Origin: Candidatus Gorgyraea atricola
GTDB lineage: Bacteria > Omnitrophota > Gorgyraeia > Gorgyraeales > Gorgyraeaceae
Direction: 5' to 3'
Assembly: GCA_030765235.1 (NCBI GenBank)
Contig: JAVCCW010000006.1
Location: 1,789-65,788, forward strand
DNA: 64,000 nt
A program made the position numbers and the translations under genes. The number at the start of each line of letters is the position of its first letter. The first letter of the stretch is position 1. Under the pieces are notes generated by a model. The model searched no databases, was not told the DNA's origin, and saw only the letters and a program-made list of their open reading frames with translations. Positions 2,824 through 45,390 of this stretch are shown here, one piece after another.

Positions 2824-2854
2824 AACCCGTTCCACCTCGTAGGTGGAACGGGTT
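2824..2854 (-). terminator. Hairpin (13-bp stem AACCCGTTCCACC/GGTGGAACGGGTT) downstream of ogg; putative terminator / palindromic element
   Basis: Perfect inverted repeat between the ogg stop (2963) and the next gene's start. Arms share CCCGTTCC with other palindromes in the window. Confidence 0.4.
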
Positions 2855-2962: not shown

Positions 2963-3574
2963 TTATTTGAATATAATCCCTGTCTCCGTAGACCAGAACA
3001 AAAGGTCTATTTCATCCAGTGGAATATTCAATTGTTGAAAAAACTCTCTCATCTTGTTTTCTATTTTTATGTATTCTTTTTTAGTCAATGACTCTGGTAT
3101 TTTCTTTATAATCCCGTATCTTTTCAGATTCTTAAGTATATGCCTGTCGAGTATAGCCAGGTCCTGGCCAAATCCTATGTTTCTTAAAAAATGACTTGCC
3201 TCTTTATAGCCAAGGCCTTTGATGTTTTTAACGAGCCAATCCCTGGCCCTGATAAGGTCTTTTGTGTCAATCATGGCCTTTAAATCTGAACATTTTCTTG
3301 CCTCGACTAAATACCGCGCCTTATTATTAGGAAAGCGCACACCTTTTAAACAGCGCCTCACGTCTCCCTGGGAGCCTTTAAAAAGTAAATCGTGTCTCTG
3401 TAGTCTCTTTATAGCCTGATCGCAAATAACTGCCTTTGCCTGTGGTGTCAATATACAGAAACAGAGCTCAGCGAATATATCCTTATCGCCTCTTTTATAG
3501 ACATGCTGAAACTCCTGCAACCTGTTTCGTATATCTATTTTTTTCTTTTTATAACTGTCCAAAAGACTTTTCAT
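2963..3574 (-). CDS. ogg: N-glycosylase/DNA lyase, Ogg2-type 8-oxoguanine DNA glycosylase (HhH-GPD)
   Basis: ~203 aa; helix-hairpin-helix KGLGYKEASHFLRNIGF followed by catalytic D; size typical of Ogg2. Confidence 0.7.
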   Translation of the reverse strand: MKSLLDSYKKKKIDIRNRLQEFQHVYKRGDKDIFAELCFCILTPQAKAVICDQAIKRLQRHDLLFKGSQGDVRRCLKGVRFPNNKARYLVEARKCSDLKAMIDTKDLIRARDWLVKNIKGLGYKEASHFLRNIGFGQDLAILDRHILKNLKRYGIIKKIPESLTKKEYIKIENKMREFFQQLNIPLDEIDLLFWSTETGIIFK

Positions 3575-4297: not shown

Positions 4298-4861
4298 TTA
4301 AGAAACCATTTTTATGCCTAACTTGAATGCCTTTTCCAAACAGTCAGTGTGTTTCTGCATGTCACCTTTGTCGTCTATCTTTGAACAGAAAAGTTCTGCC
4401 TTGTAATCTATATTAATAATAGCGAATAAATTCCTGACTATTGACTTCGCATTGTCAAAAAAGTCTTTCCTGTCTGAGCCCTCAACAGAAATAAAGGCGC
4501 CCTTTATTCTTTTATATCCAATATCTTTTTTTAATACAAATTTTGCCTTCCATGCGCACTGGAAACGGTCTATCATCATCTTTGTCTGCGCGGTCAGGCT
4601 GCCAAAAAATATCGGCGAGGCAATGATCAGGACATCCGTGGTTCTGATATTATCATAAAGCCTCTGCATATCATCTTCAAGAACACAGCCGCCATCATCC
4701 TTGATCGTTTCGCATTCCTGGCACGGAGAAAATTTTAGTTCATTAAGAATGATCTTCTCTGTCAGGGCGCCCTTGCTCCTGGCACCTTCAAGAACCTTGT
4801 CTAAAAGGATATCTGTATTACCGCCTGTTCTGGGACTTCCGTTAACACCTAAAACTTTCAT
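4298..4861 (-). CDS. NADPH-dependent FMN reductase-like flavoprotein (iron-sulfur flavoprotein family)
   Basis: [17 protein letters not shown]-terminus typical of the flavodoxin-like FMN reductase fold. Start moved to the internal MKVL ATG (4859-4861), which overlaps the rbr stop as TGATG. Confidence 0.7.
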   Translation of the reverse strand: MKVLGVNGSPRTGGNTDILLDKVLEGARSKGALTEKIILNELKFSPCQECETIKDDGGCVLEDDMQRLYDNIRTTDVLIIASPIFFGSLTAQTKMMIDRFQCAWKAKFVLKKDIGYKRIKGAFISVEGSDRKDFFDNAKSIVRNLFAIINIDYKAELFCSKIDDKGDMQKHTDCLEKAFKLGIKMVS

Positions 4862-8821: not shown

Positions 8822-9580
8822 CTATGCCTCCTTTATATCGCCTTTGATCCCCACAATCACTTTCTCTAAAGGAATCTTTTTGCCAGATAGTCGCAAGGCC
8901 TCTTTGACGATCTGAATCAAGCCAAAACAACACGGTACCTCCATGTGAAGAACCGTGATGCTTTTGATATTATTCAATTTAAAAAGTTCTGCCAGTTTTT
9001 CTTCATATATAGTAGCCGCATCAAGCTTCGGACAACCAATAAGAAGCACCTTGTCCCTCAGGAAATCCTGGTGAAAATCAGGATATGAAAACGCCACACA
9101 ATCCGCAGCTATAACCAGATCCGCTTCCTTTAAATAAGGCGCTTCCACAGGCACAAGCATGAGCTGTATAGGCCAATTTCCTAATTCAGGCTCGCTCTTG
9201 ACCCTCCCTTGTCTCTTGTCCCTTGCCTGCCCCGTACGAAATCTTTGATTTTCGTATGGGGTCCCTTGTCCCTTACTAAGCGTTTTCACTGCTGTTCCAG
9301 GACAACCACAGGGTAATTCTTTCTTCTCGCGCTTCTCAAGCTCCTCCAAATGCTTCTTTGTAGCCTTCTCATCAAAACCAGCTGACTCTCTTTCCTCTAT
9401 AGTTATAGCATCTTCAGGACAATGCCCAAGACACGCGCCCAGACCATCGCAGTAGATCTCTTTCACGAGCTTTGCCTTTCCATCTATTATCTGAAGCGCG
9501 CCTTCTGCGCAATTAGGGATACAAAGTCCGCAGCCCGTGCATTTTTCTTCGTCTATTTTTACGATTTTCCTTTTTGCCAT
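8822..9580 (-). CDS. 4Fe-4S ferredoxin-domain protein (hcp-associated) carrying an in-frame palindromic-element insertion
   Basis: CTGCGLCIPNC ... CLGHCP ferredoxin motifs; C-terminal Cys-rich domain. The segment GQGTPYENQRFRTGQARDKRQG is encoded by the 61-nt repeat. Confidence 0.7.
   Translation of the reverse strand: MAKRKIVKIDEEKCTGCGLCIPNCAEGALQIIDGKAKLVKEIYCDGLGACLGHCPEDAITIEERESAGFDEKATKKHLEELEKREKKELPCGCPGTAVKTLSKGQGTPYENQRFRTGQARDKRQGRVKSEPELGNWPIQLMLVPVEAPYLKEADLVIAADCVAFSYPDFHQDFLRDKVLLIGCPKLDAATIYEEKLAELFKLNNIKSITVLHMEVPCCFGLIQIVKEALRLSGKKIPLEKVIVGIKGDIKEA
9214..9274. repeat. RPE-like small palindromic element, copy A (inside ferredoxin-like CDS)
   Basis: 61 nt, 60/61 identical to 19997-20057. 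Core palindrome CCCCGTACGAAATC-TTT-GATTTTCGTATGGGG flanked by CTTGTCCC repeats. Confidence 0.85.
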
Positions 9581-12811: not shown

Positions 12812-12854
12812 GAAGAGGAAGTAGGCCAGGTTTAAACCTGGCCTACTTCCTCTT
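12812..12854. repeat. REP-like palindrome, core GTAGGCCAGGTTTAAACCTGGCCTAC with extended 19-bp stem
   Basis: Perfect inverted repeat GAAGAGGAAGTAGGCCAGG-TTTAAA-CCTGGCCTACTTCCTCTT. The same 26-nt core recurs at 40242 and 45352, each just 3' of a minus-strand gene. Confidence 0.8.
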
Positions 12855-12866
12855 GTATTGTTGTCT

Positions 12867-13676
12867 TCAGTTAATCGACACTGGTTGAAGCGAATCTTTG
12901 CTTATGCCGACTATTCTTTCTTTGGCTAACTGGGCTACCTTCTTCCCTGAAACCAACATGCCGCCGAAGGTTGGGCCCATGCGCGGGATCCCGTATACAG
13001 CTGAGACAGCCATTCCAGTTACAAGCAGCCCTGGATAGATCTCGCCTGTTTTTTCAACGACCAAATCCTCAGAAGTATTCGCATCCATTGGCCCGCATTC
13101 CTTTATCTTAAGAATACCCCGCTTCTCCAGGCTTCTGCACACCCATGCATCATGACCAGTAGCATCGATCACAATCTTAGATTCCAGAGAAATAGGGTCA
13201 ACACAGGTAATTTGTTTTGGAAGAGATGATATTGCTGTCCAGTTTATGACAACACCTTCCATCTTGTTATTTCGTATCACTGCATCATCAAATTTTGTCA
13301 TGTTCAGGATCTTTGCACCTGCATCACATGCAGCTGAGATAAGCTTTGCGCATGCATTCGGGCCATCAGCTACAACCAATCCCTTTTCAACCTCTTTATA
13401 AGGTATCTTCAGCTCATCCAGAATCTCATCTGATGGGCTACGAAAAGTCACTGTATTCATAAGATATCCGCCGAGCCAAAAACCGCCACCTAGATAATTG
13501 TTTGCCTCGATAACTAAAGTCTTAATACCATCTTTTGCCAAATCCATTGCTGCTGTAAGTCCACTTGGCCCGCCACCTACGATAATTACATCTGAAATAA
13601 TATAATCCTCGAGCCATTTGCTAAATTCCCTTACGATAGCTTTACTAATCTTCGCTTCAGTCACAGGATGAAACAT
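12867..13676 (-). CDS. thi4: Thiazole synthase, Thi4 family (archaeal/eukaryote-type)
   Basis: GGGPSGLTAA dinucleotide motif; Thi4-like length; upstream of thiE-thiM. Confidence 0.85.
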   Translation of the reverse strand: MFHPVTEAKISKAIVREFSKWLEDYIISDVIIVGGGPSGLTAAMDLAKDGIKTLVIEANNYLGGGFWLGGYLMNTVTFRSPSDEILDELKIPYKEVEKGLVVADGPNACAKLISAACDAGAKILNMTKFDDAVIRNNKMEGVVINWTAISSLPKQITCVDPISLESKIVIDATGHDAWVCRSLEKRGILKIKECGPMDANTSEDLVVEKTGEIYPGLLVTGMAVSAVYGIPRMGPTFGGMLVSGKKVAQLAKERIVGISKDSLQPVSIN

Positions 13677-13689
13677 GCTTTCCCCCTTC

Positions 13690-14298
13690 CTAGTTAAATA
13701 GAGCCTGGAATTTCTCTATTTCCTTCTTTACATCATCCTTTGTCAGGACTGCTGAAATCGCGCATACTGCGTCTGCTCCAGCATCCACGACCTCTTTTAC
13801 ATTGTCGAGGGTAATGCCACCTATTGCTGTAACAGGTACAGTGCAGTTCTTTTTTATCTCCTTTATGAGCTCAATACCGCAAGGCGCGCCTGCATCATGT
13901 TTTGTCGTGGTTGAAAATATCGGACTTACGCCTAAATAGTCAGCGCCTTTTTTCTCTGCCAGCACTGCCTCTTTTAGATCATGCACTGTTACGCCTATTG
14001 TCTTTGTCTTGCCCAAGAGCTTACGAGCAGTCTCGTATGGCATATCGCCCTGGCCTACATGCACACCATCTGCATCCACTGATAGAGCAGCACCCACTAT
14101 GTCATTTATAATAAATAATGCCTTTCCCTCGCATATGTTCTTAAGCGTCTTTATTTCCTCAAGCAAAAACTCCATCTTGCTCGTTTTGCTTCTATATTGA
14201 ACAACACTCACTCCAGCCTCAATAGCGCTTTTCACATCACTCCGGTTACCATTCTTACTAAGACCAGCATCTGTTACAAAATAATAACCTTTTATCAT
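13690..14298 (-). CDS. thiE: Thiamine-phosphate synthase
   Basis: YFVTD...GADGVHVGQGD...IGVSV...AIGGI motifs. Confidence 0.9.
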   Translation of the reverse strand: MIKGYYFVTDAGLSKNGNRSDVKSAIEAGVSVVQYRSKTSKMEFLLEEIKTLKNICEGKALFIINDIVGAALSVDADGVHVGQGDMPYETARKLLGKTKTIGVTVHDLKEAVLAEKKGADYLGVSPIFSTTTKHDAGAPCGIELIKEIKKNCTVPVTAIGGITLDNVKEVVDAGADAVCAISAVLTKDDVKKEIEKFQALFN

Positions 14299-15080
14299 TC
14301 TACCCTCTTTAGTTTTTCTATTTTTTCTTTGTCCAGATTATAAATATGATCGAATAGCTTTACCTTAAATGTGCCTGGGCCGGCGCTATCCTTGTATGCA
14401 AGCTCTGCTGCGATCTCATAACACGCAAGGCCTGCTGCGCTCGCTTTAGCCAGATCTTTTTCAACAGCACTAAACGCGCCTATGACTGACGCTGCCATGC
14501 ATCCTGTACCTACCACATGCGCCATCATATCGCAGCCATTTTTTACAATAATGTGCTTATCTTTAGTAGCTACTATATCTTCTTTTCCTGTTATAACCAC
14601 TGTGGCATTTCTTTTTGCTGCAAGATGTTTTGCCAGCTCTATTAGATCTTTCTCAACTTCACTCGAATCTACACCCTTTGTCTGGACCTCTTCGCCTGCG
14701 ATCCTGGCAACCTCTGAGGCATTGCCTTTTATAATATCAATCCTTGCACAATCCAGAAGCTCAAAACACTTTTCATCCCTTAATTTCGTAGCGCCTGCGC
14801 CGCATACATCCAGTGTAACGGGTATACCTTTTTTATTCGCTGATTTCGCGGCCTTTTTCATTGATTCAATAAATTCAGGTGTCAATGTACCTATATTAAG
14901 CACAAGCGCTGACGCCAGAGACGCCATATCCTCGACCTCTTCCGCAGCATGAGCCATTACAGGCGCAGCGCCAAACACCTTCACGATGTTAGCACAATCA
15001 TAAATCGTGACCCAATTCGTAAGATGATGCACCAAAGGCTTCTCCGTCCTAACTTTCTGCAAAATACTATAGATGTCCAT
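14295..15080 (-). CDS. thiM: Hydroxyethylthiazole kinase
   Basis: VHHLTNWVT...NIGTL...VVGTGCM motifs; ATG at 15080 preceded by AGGAGG. Confidence 0.9.
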   Translation of the reverse strand: MDIYSILQKVRTEKPLVHHLTNWVTIYDCANIVKVFGAAPVMAHAAEEVEDMASLASALVLNIGTLTPEFIESMKKAAKSANKKGIPVTLDVCGAGATKLRDEKCFELLDCARIDIIKGNASEVARIAGEEVQTKGVDSSEVEKDLIELAKHLAAKRNATVVITGKEDIVATKDKHIIVKNGCDMMAHVVGTGCMAASVIGAFSAVEKDLAKASAAGLACYEIAAELAYKDSAGPGTFKVKLFDHIYNLDKEKIEKLKRVE

Positions 15081-15099
15081 CAATTCCTCCTAATAAATA

Positions 15100-15335
15100 A
15101 AAAACCCTATGCTAATACATAGGGTTTTTACAAATCTTTTTCCCTACGCTGGCATTATCCAGTTCAGGTTCATCGGGTAATCCGCCTTGCCCCGTTCCAA
15201 ATTCTTCAATATCATCAAATAATCTACAAGAATTGCCCGCAATTAGTTACAAACAATCAATAGATTATCGATTAGAATTTGGAATGGGGTCTAGCAGAAC
15301 TCTCAGGCCGCTCACGACCTCCCCGTTGTTAACTA
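15100..15335 (-). promoter_or_regulatory. TPP riboswitch (THI element) with intrinsic-terminator expression platform upstream of thiM
   Basis: On the minus strand: GGGGAGGUCGUGAGCGGCCUGAGA ... ACCCGAUGAACCUGAACUGGAUAAUGCCAGCGUAGGGAA matches the TPP aptamer consensus. It is followed by hairpin AAAAACCCUAUG-UAUUAG-CAUAGGGUUUUU plus a U-run, then AGGAGG and the thiM ATG. The P3 stem is unusually long (15190-15289). Confidence 0.85.
15190..15289. repeat. Long palindromic insertion forming riboswitch P3 (15-bp arms CCCCGTTCCAAATTC / GAATTTGGAATGGGG, ~70-nt interior)
   Basis: Arms match the intergenic palindromes at 32826-32856 and 32724-32747 and resemble the RPE-like core. Confidence 0.6.
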
Positions 15336-15367
15336 AATTAAAACATAGATACTACTTACTGTCAATA

Positions 15368-15733
15368 TTAAAAACAGCAAGCGCTCATGCCGGCTTTTTT
15401 GCATACTTCTAAAACATTGATGTCAACGCCGCATTCAGGGCATTTGATCATGCATTCTTTCTTGATGTTTGCCATGTATTTTTCTGGGTCGCTGTTGAAA
15501 GTCTCTATGCAGCCAGGGCAGCAGAATCCTATTGTCTTTCCATTGTATTCTGTTTTATACTGCGTGTCTTTGCTGACTTCACCTTCCATAACAGGGCAAA
15601 GAGTATTGATCGCTTCTCCTGTTTCGCCGGATTTTGCAGATCCTGCGCCACACGCGCCACAACCTGCAAACGCAAGGCTAGATGATACAAAGAACACAAA
15701 CACTACCACTAATAACGTTATGAGTTTTTTCAT
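15368..15733 (-). CDS. Exported YHS-domain metal-binding protein (putative copper chaperone of the cus operon)
   Basis: Signal peptide; CPVMEGEV...YNGKTIGFCCPGC...F..DPEKY YHS motif; extra Cys-rich tail. Confidence 0.6.
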   Translation of the reverse strand: MKKLITLLVVVFVFFVSSSLAFAGCGACGAGSAKSGETGEAINTLCPVMEGEVSKDTQYKTEYNGKTIGFCCPGCIETFNSDPEKYMANIKKECMIKCPECGVDINVLEVCKKAGMSACCF

Positions 15734-32723: not shown

Positions 32724-32747
32724 CCAAATCAAAGATTTGGAACGGGG
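32724..32747. repeat. Small palindromic element CCAAATC-AAA-GATTTGG + AACGGGG
   Basis: 7-bp perfect stem; same AAATC-NNN-GATTT core as the in-frame RPE-like element. Confidence 0.6.
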
Positions 32748-32825
32748 CTCGCTGTAAACCGTAGCGGACCGCTAAAATCTCTCCAGTGCCGAAGGCCCCA
32801 GCCTGCCAGAAGAATTGAGATTGCT

Positions 32826-32856
32826 TCCCATTCCAAATCTCCGATTTGGAACGGGA
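32826..32856. repeat. Small palindromic element TCCCATTCCAAATC-TCC-GATTTGGAACGGGA
   Basis: 14-bp stem (one mismatch); arms nearly identical to the riboswitch P3 arms. Confidence 0.65.
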
Positions 32857-40175: not shown

Positions 40176-40241
40176 GGTGTATATATGATACTACTGTGGG
40201 CTTATTGAGTCAAGGTAAGGAAGGGATTTTAACTCGTAGTA

Positions 40242-40267
40242 GTAGGCCAGGTTTAAACCTGGCCTAC
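40242..40267. repeat. REP-like palindrome GTAGGCCAGGTTTAAACCTGGCCTAC (copy 2)
   Basis: Identical core to 12821-12846 and 45352-45377, preceded by TAGTAG as in copy 3. Confidence 0.8.
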
Positions 40268-40303
40268 AAAAAAAGTGAGGGCAAGATAAAGCGTAAGGCA
40301 CGT

Positions 40304-45312: not shown

Positions 45313-45351
45313 CTCTACTCCGTGCTAACTTTGCTCTGTCCCTCTGTAGTA

Positions 45352-45377
45352 GTAGGCCAGGTTTAAACCTGGCCTAC
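45352..45377. repeat. REP-like palindrome GTAGGCCAGGTTTAAACCTGGCCTAC (copy 3)
   Basis: Extended stem CCCTCTG...CAGAGGG with TAGTAG bulge. Confidence 0.8.
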
Positions 45378-45390
45378 AGAGGGGCGTAAG

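Follow-up and report, generated by a model that had tools for sequence, protein, structure and literature searches.

The 64,000-nucleotide stretch of the Candidatus Gorgyraea atricola genome analysed here (hereafter the window) carries on its minus strand a three-gene thiamine operon, thiM-thiE-thi4, the leader of which was placed at positions 15335-15081 by direct reading. This leader contains a thiamine pyrophosphate (TPP) riboswitch with a 100-nt palindromic insert in its P3a stem. We consider it probable, at roughly 80%, that the insert is a non-autonomous transposable element of the miniature inverted-repeat type (MITE), about 100 bp long, that entered the optional P3a at its terminal loop, and that the TPP riboswitch should still function. 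The closest homologues of the window ThiM are encoded in Candidatus Omnitrophota assemblies, share 85-93% identity with it and are named hydroxyethylthiazole kinase; an exact look-up of the protein itself returned no record. The coordinates of the operon, the leader and the repeats of the window are collected in the table.

Table. Features of the thiM leader and operon and repeats elsewhere in the window. Positions are those of the window; RNA motifs are read on the minus strand.
Feature	Position	Strand	Remarks
thiM, hydroxyethylthiazole kinase	14295..15080	-	first gene of the operon; Pfam HK, 2.7e-78
thiE, thiamine-phosphate synthase	13690-14298	-	Pfam TMP-TENI, 1e-58
thi4, Thi4-type thiazole synthase	12867-13676	-	Pfam Thi4, 5.4e-71
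TPP (THI-box) aptamer	15141..15324	-	direct reading, minimum-free-energy fold and partial RF00059 match
P2	15324-15321 / 15178-15175	-	GGGG / ACCC
P3	15319-15306	-	ordinary 5-bp hairpin GGUCG-UGAG-CGGCC, directly after GGGG
J3/2	15306-15301	-	CUGAGA
P3a base helix	15298-15294 / 15185-15181	-	UCUGC / GCGGA
Miniature inverted-repeat element	15190..15289	-	100 nt, majority 'type A' interior, in the P3a loop
Junctions of the element	15293-15290 (left), 15186..15189 (right)	-	UAGA (left), CAAG (right); no target-site duplication at this copy
Conserved block	15170-15140	-	AACCUGAACUGGAUAAUGCCAGCGUAGGGAA
P4	15168-15165 / 15146-15143	-	CCUG / UAGG
P5	15162-15159 / 15152-15149	-	CUGG / CCAG
Intrinsic terminator	15094..15129	-	AAAAACCCUAUG-UAUUAG-CAUAGGGUUUUUU; terminator scan; 15129-15100 plus U tract
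Antiterminator alternative	15124-15117 with 15149-15142	-	CCCUAUGU (terminator 5' half) with GCGUAGGG; 8 pairs
TTGACA, -35-like hexamer	15360..15365	-	in all orthologous leaders; weak evidence
Arms-only hairpin, 31 nt	32826..32856	.	TCCCATTCCAAATC-TCC-GATTTGGAACGGGA; short relative of the element
Truncated short hairpin	32724..32747	.	CCAAATC-AAA-GATTTGGAACGGGG; arm type that of the element
61-nt repeat	9214-9274, 19997-20057		copies 98% identical; palindromic core CCCCGTAYGAAATC-TTT-GATTTTCGTATGGGG, CCCTTGTCCCTT-type flanks
Perfect palindrome family	12813-12854, 40236-40268, 45346-45378		GTAGGCCAGGTTTAAACCTGGCCTAC; distinct from the element
Hairpin	2824-2854		AACCCGTTCCACC-TCGTA-GGTGGAACGGGTT; only the 9-mer CCCGTTCCA in common with the element ends

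The conserved blocks of a TPP riboswitch are complete in this leader, both by direct reading and in the alignment with orthologues. As a preliminary description of the stretch had stated, GGGG, CUGAGA, ACCC and AACCUGAACUGGAUAAUGCCAGCGUAGGGAA are all in place, together with helices P2, P3, P4 and P5 and the J3/2 CUGAGA, and the columns of the aptamer core are identical to those of six orthologous leaders. The folding that had been proposed as a check gave a minimum free energy of -87.4 kcal/mol for the whole leader (z = -7.3 versus shuffles), with a structure that holds the long arm as well as P2, P3, a 6-bp helix below the insert, P4/P5 and the terminator. The aptamer lies upstream of the thiamine genes and is followed by an expression platform, with a ribosome-binding site 3' of the terminator. 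Within this platform, the antiterminator strand GCGUAGGG includes the 3' strand of P4, and its duplex with CCCUAUGU has an energy of -10.7 kcal/mol in the window and -13.9 kcal/mol in L042, a locus from the metagenome-assembled genome (MAG) Modern_marine.mb.11 that represents a second lineage with the insert. In L042 the terminator stem is altered to CCCUGCGC/GCGCAGGG and the match to GCGUAGGG is kept, which supports a terminator/antiterminator mechanism. The leader would thus act as a TPP-dependent OFF switch of transcription termination: bound TPP would fix P4/P5 and free CCCUAUGU, allowing the terminator to form, and in its absence GCGUAGGG would pair with CCCUAUGU and permit read-through.

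The RNA read on the minus strand from 15289 to 15190 runs CCCCAUUCCAAAUUC...GAAUUUGGAACGGGG, and the long hairpin arms described earlier for this interval were recovered: CCCCAUUCCAAAUUCU and AGAAUUUGGAACGGGG pair across 16 positions with a single A.C mismatch, and the element folded alone reaches -38.4 kcal/mol. The span from CUGAGA to ACCC amounts to about 120 nt, with the insert in its centre, and the strand-to-strand distance of P3a is likewise about 120 nt with the element, versus 14-18 nt in orthologues. This stem had originally been taken for P3. The P3 of the leader is, however, an ordinary hairpin, and the long stem follows CUGAGA and is P3a, a helix that Rfam's own alignment of the orthologues also displays. 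The accompanying argument that the stem tolerates changes in length thus holds for P3a; in eukaryotes the variable stem is P3, and in bacteria the optional one is P3a (PMC2258182). Barrick and Breaker (PMC2258182) counted P3a in 552 of 907 TPP riboswitches and predicted a stacking of this stem on P2, where the crystal structures show unoccupied space, so that there is structural room for an insert. In the transcript, the inverted repeats of the element would pair and extend P3a outward, away from the ligand pocket; the nucleotides that contact the ligand or form the junctions are unaltered, as are P1-P5, the terminator and the antiterminator. The aptamer motifs, the terminator and the antiterminator are intact; judged from the sequence, the switch probably still works, and the insert is probably tolerated and selectively near-neutral.

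The thiM loci of relatives were retrieved for comparison of their leaders, as the preliminary description had advised, and the same riboswitch was found without the element, with a P3a loop of only 4-8 nt, in six distinct related leaders. In the closest relatives (L045/L046/L047, ThiM 90-93% identical to that of the window) P3a reads UCUGC-UAAA-GCAGA. Three further leaders belong to loci with 87% ThiM identity, with P3a sequences UCCGU-GAAUGA-ACGGA (L001), UUCGU-GAUAA-GCGGA (L002) and UCCAC-GAUA-GUGGA (L049/L050), and the two most distant ones read UUCGC-GGGCGA-GCGAA (L051, 80%) and UCCGC-UAUA-GCGGA (L056, 76%). The P3a base helix has all five standard pairs in eight of eight leaders, and four of these pairs show compensatory changes, which argues that the helix is real and selected. 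The riboswitch of L050 is empty although its MAG contains the most element copies. In L056 (380-670) the genes are ordered thi4-thiM-thiE and the empty TPP riboswitch lies 5' of thi4, indicating that the operon was rearranged within the group.

The insert belongs to a dispersed family. A scan of one genome per species (185,579 species) with the pattern CCCCRTTCCAAAT, a gap of 59-89 nt and ATTTGGAAYGGG yielded 41 loci, against roughly 0.1 expected by chance according to our estimate. Nearly all of them are in Omnitrophota MAGs, including at least 19 in the single MAG KR13_S3.mb.80. Full-length matches to the window interior, in either orientation, were found at 27 of the 41 loci (28 copies including that of the window), and the remaining copies have the ends alone in common with it, as is usual for elements mobilised in trans. 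The family ends are 16-bp terminal inverted repeats, CCCCGTTCCAAATTCT, which are invariant in 25 aligned copies, an invariance partly imposed by the search pattern. With 24 copies from other loci the window copy forms a gapless alignment (mean column identity 86%), and it is 88-90% identical to the copies in L009, L019 and L042. An exact 4-bp duplication flanks 22 of the 41 copies (about 0.16 expected), always of the form YNNR, such as CGTG, CAAG, CTTG, CCCG, TACA, TTTA and TAAA. Several of the duplication-free copies join flanks that are found separately at other copies, an indication that copies have recombined with one another or that sequences were joined in assembly. The earlier proposal that the insert is a member of a palindromic family is thus borne out by the 41 loci elsewhere, the target duplications and the empty sites in relatives. 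We class the family as MITEs on the last two of these features and on its size, inverted ends and copy number: its members are short and non-coding with inverted ends, occur as dispersed copies that are present or absent at orthologous sites, and at the family level create a 4-bp duplication. This is an undescribed MITE family across Omnitrophota; mini forms consisting of the arms alone belong to it, as do copies inserted at the ends of tRNA genes. Ends that start with CC, together with a 4-bp duplication, may link it to IS1380/IS5-like families. In the consensus fold of the family the arm stem alone is shared, with no interior structure or covariation, so that the interior hairpin of the window copy is not a family feature. 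A scan of viral contigs for the element gave 0 matches.

A profile search of the window found no second full-length copy. The arm sequence recurs, as had been noted, at 32734-32746, 32827-32839 and 32843-32855, with a near variant at 9231/9248 and 20014/20031, and the arm pattern given in the preliminary description has 9 matches in the window compared with 1.1 expected, a number reached by none of 100 shuffles. An arms-only copy of 38 nt with its own CGTG duplication in L021 (5500-5538) connects the element family with the two short hairpins of the window (32826-32856, 32724-32747). Two candidates for the ends of an autonomous partner were rejected. In L039 the ends at 3254-3353 and 4691-4790, 1.5 kb apart, proved to be two separate element copies; they bracket a 377-aa reading frame that is not a transposase and share the same flanks of 15-20 nt on both sides, the repeated unit there exceeding the 100-nt element. 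The single arm match at L042:619 falls within a gene and is due to chance. The exact centre of another palindromic repeat, about 30 bp long, TTGACAAATCCGACACGTTCATTTTGTCAA, is the site of at least five insertions (L007, L015, L017, L030 and L021 5485-5555), each with a CGTG or CACG duplication, and there are half-sites in L004, L031 and L037; they suggest a strong preference in targeting, perhaps one for the centres of hairpins.

The element also occupies the equivalent P3a site, in matching orientation, in L042, and three more assemblies of this lineage are filled (L053-L055, in the case of L055 according to pattern and profile matches). One Joint Genome Institute (JGI) contig, L044, carries a filled allele identical to that of the window; a metagenome scan for riboswitch-element junctions recovered the window's own sequence (L044) only, and no further filled lineage. 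The filled allele, found in four L042-lineage assemblies and one JGI contig, is not an assembly artefact. In both the window and L042 the left junction is AGA/CCCCA and the right one GGGG/CAAGGCGGAUU (the left flank of L042 being GAGA), and both copies contain a rare A in the left arm and lack a duplication. The two copies are 90% identical, and ThiM of L042 is 78% identical to that of the window. At four-fold degenerate sites the two lineages are 34% identical, versus about 26% at saturation, and each of them has a closer relative with an empty site, the window in L045 and L042 in L056. The divergence of ThiM, the nearly saturated synonymous sites and the empty sisters indicate that the element arrived after the lineages had split. 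A single ancient insertion inherited vertically is unlikely, as it would require about five losses and 90% identity between the copies despite 34% identity at four-fold sites. Either a single allele recombined through the conserved aptamer core or site-directed insertion occurred repeatedly. Nearly the same similarity (88-89%) is reached by element copies from unrelated loci of other species, which makes high similarity a property of the whole family. The flank differences between the window and L045, examined in the alignment for a recombination tract, are all derived states specific to L045.

The window and L042-lineage copies differ by six transitions, among other substitutions; each is A<->G when read on the RNA strand, and five affect paired positions. 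Of 8 changed pairs, 6-7 remain paired through G.U (A-U <-> G.U); the pattern hints at selection at the RNA level, in a sample of only about ten substitutions. The L042 lineage has in addition acquired a second insert of about 75 nt with two hairpins (L042 2693-2767, L053 1342-1416, and also in L054 and L055), which is placed between the 5' strand of P4, AACCUGAU, and P5, CUGGAUAAUGCCAG, and has no other copy among the fetched loci. In the same lineage J2/4 is changed from GAACCUGA to AAACCUGA or GGACCUGA.

The element may enter hairpin loops in a structure- or site-directed manner, or filled alleles may be transferred between species by homologous recombination through the ultra-conserved aptamer core; either route would explain the shared junction and orientation, the empty sisters and the 90% identity of the copies. 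We regard this as possible but rather doubtful. If it is true, mobile DNA would use conserved riboswitch cores as landing pads or as recombination arms, and genes for structured RNAs would be systematic targets, the 5' end of tRNA-Pro (see below) being a second example.

Several observations weigh against a functional riboswitch that tolerates a transposed element. With the Rfam TPP model RF00059 (gathering threshold 54.3 bits), a search for which the preliminary description had called, a scan of the whole window at threshold gave no TPP match, and a permissive local scan of the window reached 43.1 bits (E = 3.8e-7). The copy in the riboswitch has no target duplication (UAGA ... CAAG), and hence the textbook footprint of transposition is missing at this site; CAAG is also found 3' of other duplication-free copies (L003, L033 and L039). 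The window and the 56 loci (388 kb examined) yielded no transposase-bearing autonomous partner with matching ends. The second insert and the J2/4 changes of the L042 lineage could reflect relaxed constraint there, and an imperfect RNA duplex of about 45 bp may attract RNase III or slow folding or the closure of P2, in which case the insertion might not be neutral. The low Rfam score, for its part, is probably due to the insert. In the 43.1-bit alignment the 3' half is perfect and the 5' half is forced onto insert sequence. Five of the six distinct insert-free leaders (all but L056) were scanned and score 54.3-62.1 bits, at or above the threshold. Among them, the L045 leader, which is near-identical to the window leader apart from the insert and its junctions, scores 58.3 bits. 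The score of the window thus most likely reflects how the insert disturbs the model, and would then not speak against the aptamer. Standard annotation with covariance models overlooks such a transposon-bearing aptamer, and riboswitch surveys of repeat-rich uncultured phyla will under-count them.

These observations bear on the alternative that the insertion disabled or degrades the riboswitch, leaving a decaying relic and a thi operon that is constitutive or otherwise controlled. The sub-threshold score, the second insert at the P4/P5 junction with the J2/4 substitutions in the L042 lineage, and the roughly 100 nt added between the P2 strands, which could perturb co-transcriptional folding, would all fit such a decay. 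We nevertheless hold it to be unlikely, because all conserved aptamer nucleotides of the window are those of orthologues that pass the Rfam threshold, the score is probably accounted for by insertion penalty and misalignment, the terminator and antiterminator are intact and covary even in L042, and the native helices are all kept in the minimum-free-energy fold. Somewhat less probable still is that the long P3a arm has been co-opted, for example as a site for RNase III or another protein or as a kinetic delay, and that the filled allele was kept or spread as useful. Identical junctions in two nearly saturated lineages with 90% identical copies, and A<->G-only transitions that keep 6 to 7 of 8 changed pairs, are what this proposal would lead one to expect; yet copies from unrelated loci in other species are 88-89% similar, the family consensus fold has neither conserved interior structure nor covariation, most relatives fare well without the insert, and the sample comprises a mere 9-10 substitutions.

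Two further alternatives concern the nature of the insert itself. Its palindromic form, the existence of short hairpin forms, the several copies central in another palindromic repeat and the missing duplication in the riboswitch would suit an element of the REP/REPIN type, moved by a RAYT transposase (IS200/IS605-like) and not a DDE cut-and-paste MITE. Single-strand Y1 transposition as in IS200/IS605 does not give 4-bp duplications of the kind found exactly at 22 of the 41 copies, where elements of that type should show no target duplication, and this makes the assignment very improbable. Hardly any weight attaches to the idea that P3a (or P3) expanded natively in this lineage to give the long stem, with a chance likeness to local hairpins: the length of P3a does vary naturally among TPP riboswitches (PMC2258182), but the insert matches dozens of copies over its full length and without gaps, these copies lying at unrelated loci in either orientation and with target duplications, and a loop of 4 nt occupies the site in the closest relatives (ThiM 90-93%). 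On the preferred interpretation of a MITE tolerated in P3a, the filled and empty alleles, which otherwise differ little, offer a natural experiment on P3a length, folding kinetics and the response to TPP.

Insertions of the element were also found at tRNA genes. At the 5' end of tRNA-Pro(GGG) (L014 7256-7425 and L028 5209-5584), ARAGORN and Rfam place the start of the tRNA 5 nt inside the element end; the terminal CGGGG of the element and the CGTG duplication make up the acceptor strand CGGGGCG, and a decayed former 5' end lies upstream. In L028, three copies stand in tandem, with CGTG after each. An intron-like interruption of the tRNA by the element was considered and rejected, as ARAGORN and Rfam both find tRNA-Pro complete. 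In the set comprising L010 1371-1556, L041 5462-5559 and L023 2673-2776, one copy lies directly 3' of tRNA-Tyr with the duplication CCCA, and two adjoin fragments resembling tRNA 5' halves, with a complete tRNA 125-300 nt away. Among the 56 loci, the suggested spread of the element into RNA stems thus comes down to one riboswitch site in two lineages, together with the insertions at tRNA gene ends, which leave the tRNA uninterrupted.

Other repeats of the window had been related to the insert as well. The two copies of the 61-nt repeat lie within long minus-strand open reading frames, in differing frames and outside Pfam domains; one covers aa 101-126 of a 252-aa 4Fe-4S protein, the other aa 72-98 of a 443-aa HlyD-like protein. 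The repeat at 9229-9251 matches the hairpin at 32726-32748 in 21 of 23 positions, and kinship of the element with the CCCCGTACGAAATC repeats is on this basis no more than plausible. The claimed kinship with the hairpin at 2824-2854 was not sustained: with about 0.5 occurrences of a 9-mer like CCCGTTCCA to be expected in 128 kb, relatedness is not demonstrable from it. The GTAGGCCAGGTTTAAACCTGGCCTAC copy just 3' of the thi4 stop may be the operon terminator or a REP-like element. Upstream of the leader, the TTGACA hexamer was not called by a consensus promoter scan and has no clear -10 partner. The upstream neighbour (15368-15733) is a gene for a cysteine-rich YHS-domain protein adjoining an RND efflux pump, likely a metal-resistance cluster, and this YHS/RND neighbourhood is kept in L001, L049 and L056.

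Among known systems, insertion sequences of the IS1397/ISKpn1 type target the loops of REP palindromes with a duplication of 3-4 bp, and are full insertion sequences with a transposase. The present family resembles them in the at least five copies central in a 30-bp palindrome and in the riboswitch copy within a hairpin loop; many of its copies lie outside palindromes, and targeting by structure is at most a possibility for it. With the bacterial MITEs Correia/NEMIS, RUP, BOX and ERIC (reviewed in PMC10969869 and PMC3184786) it shares a non-coding length of about 100 bp, terminal inverted repeats, a short target duplication, many dispersed copies, stable RNA hairpins and a frequent location in 5' leaders, and it differs from them as a new sequence family seen so far only in Omnitrophota MAGs. 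The reviews merely speculate that MITEs form riboswitch-like structures (PMC10969869), and the literature searched contains no report of a MITE within a riboswitch aptamer or of MITEs in Omnitrophota; a transposon within a riboswitch thus appears to be unreported, though mechanistically ordinary. The nearest precedent for a palindromic element in an RNA gene is a Rickettsia palindromic element in the transfer-messenger RNA (tmRNA) gene of Rickettsia bellii (PMC1458961). These elements, too, are palindromic, mobile and tolerated in functional genes, but they are functional analogues only, from another phylum, and the host there is a stable RNA instead of a cis-regulatory aptamer. With other TPP riboswitches (RF00059) the window leader shares the core, the helices, the position of P3a between CUGAGA and ACCC and a terminator-type platform, and it is set apart from them by its sub-threshold score and by a P3a that is extended by a transposable element.

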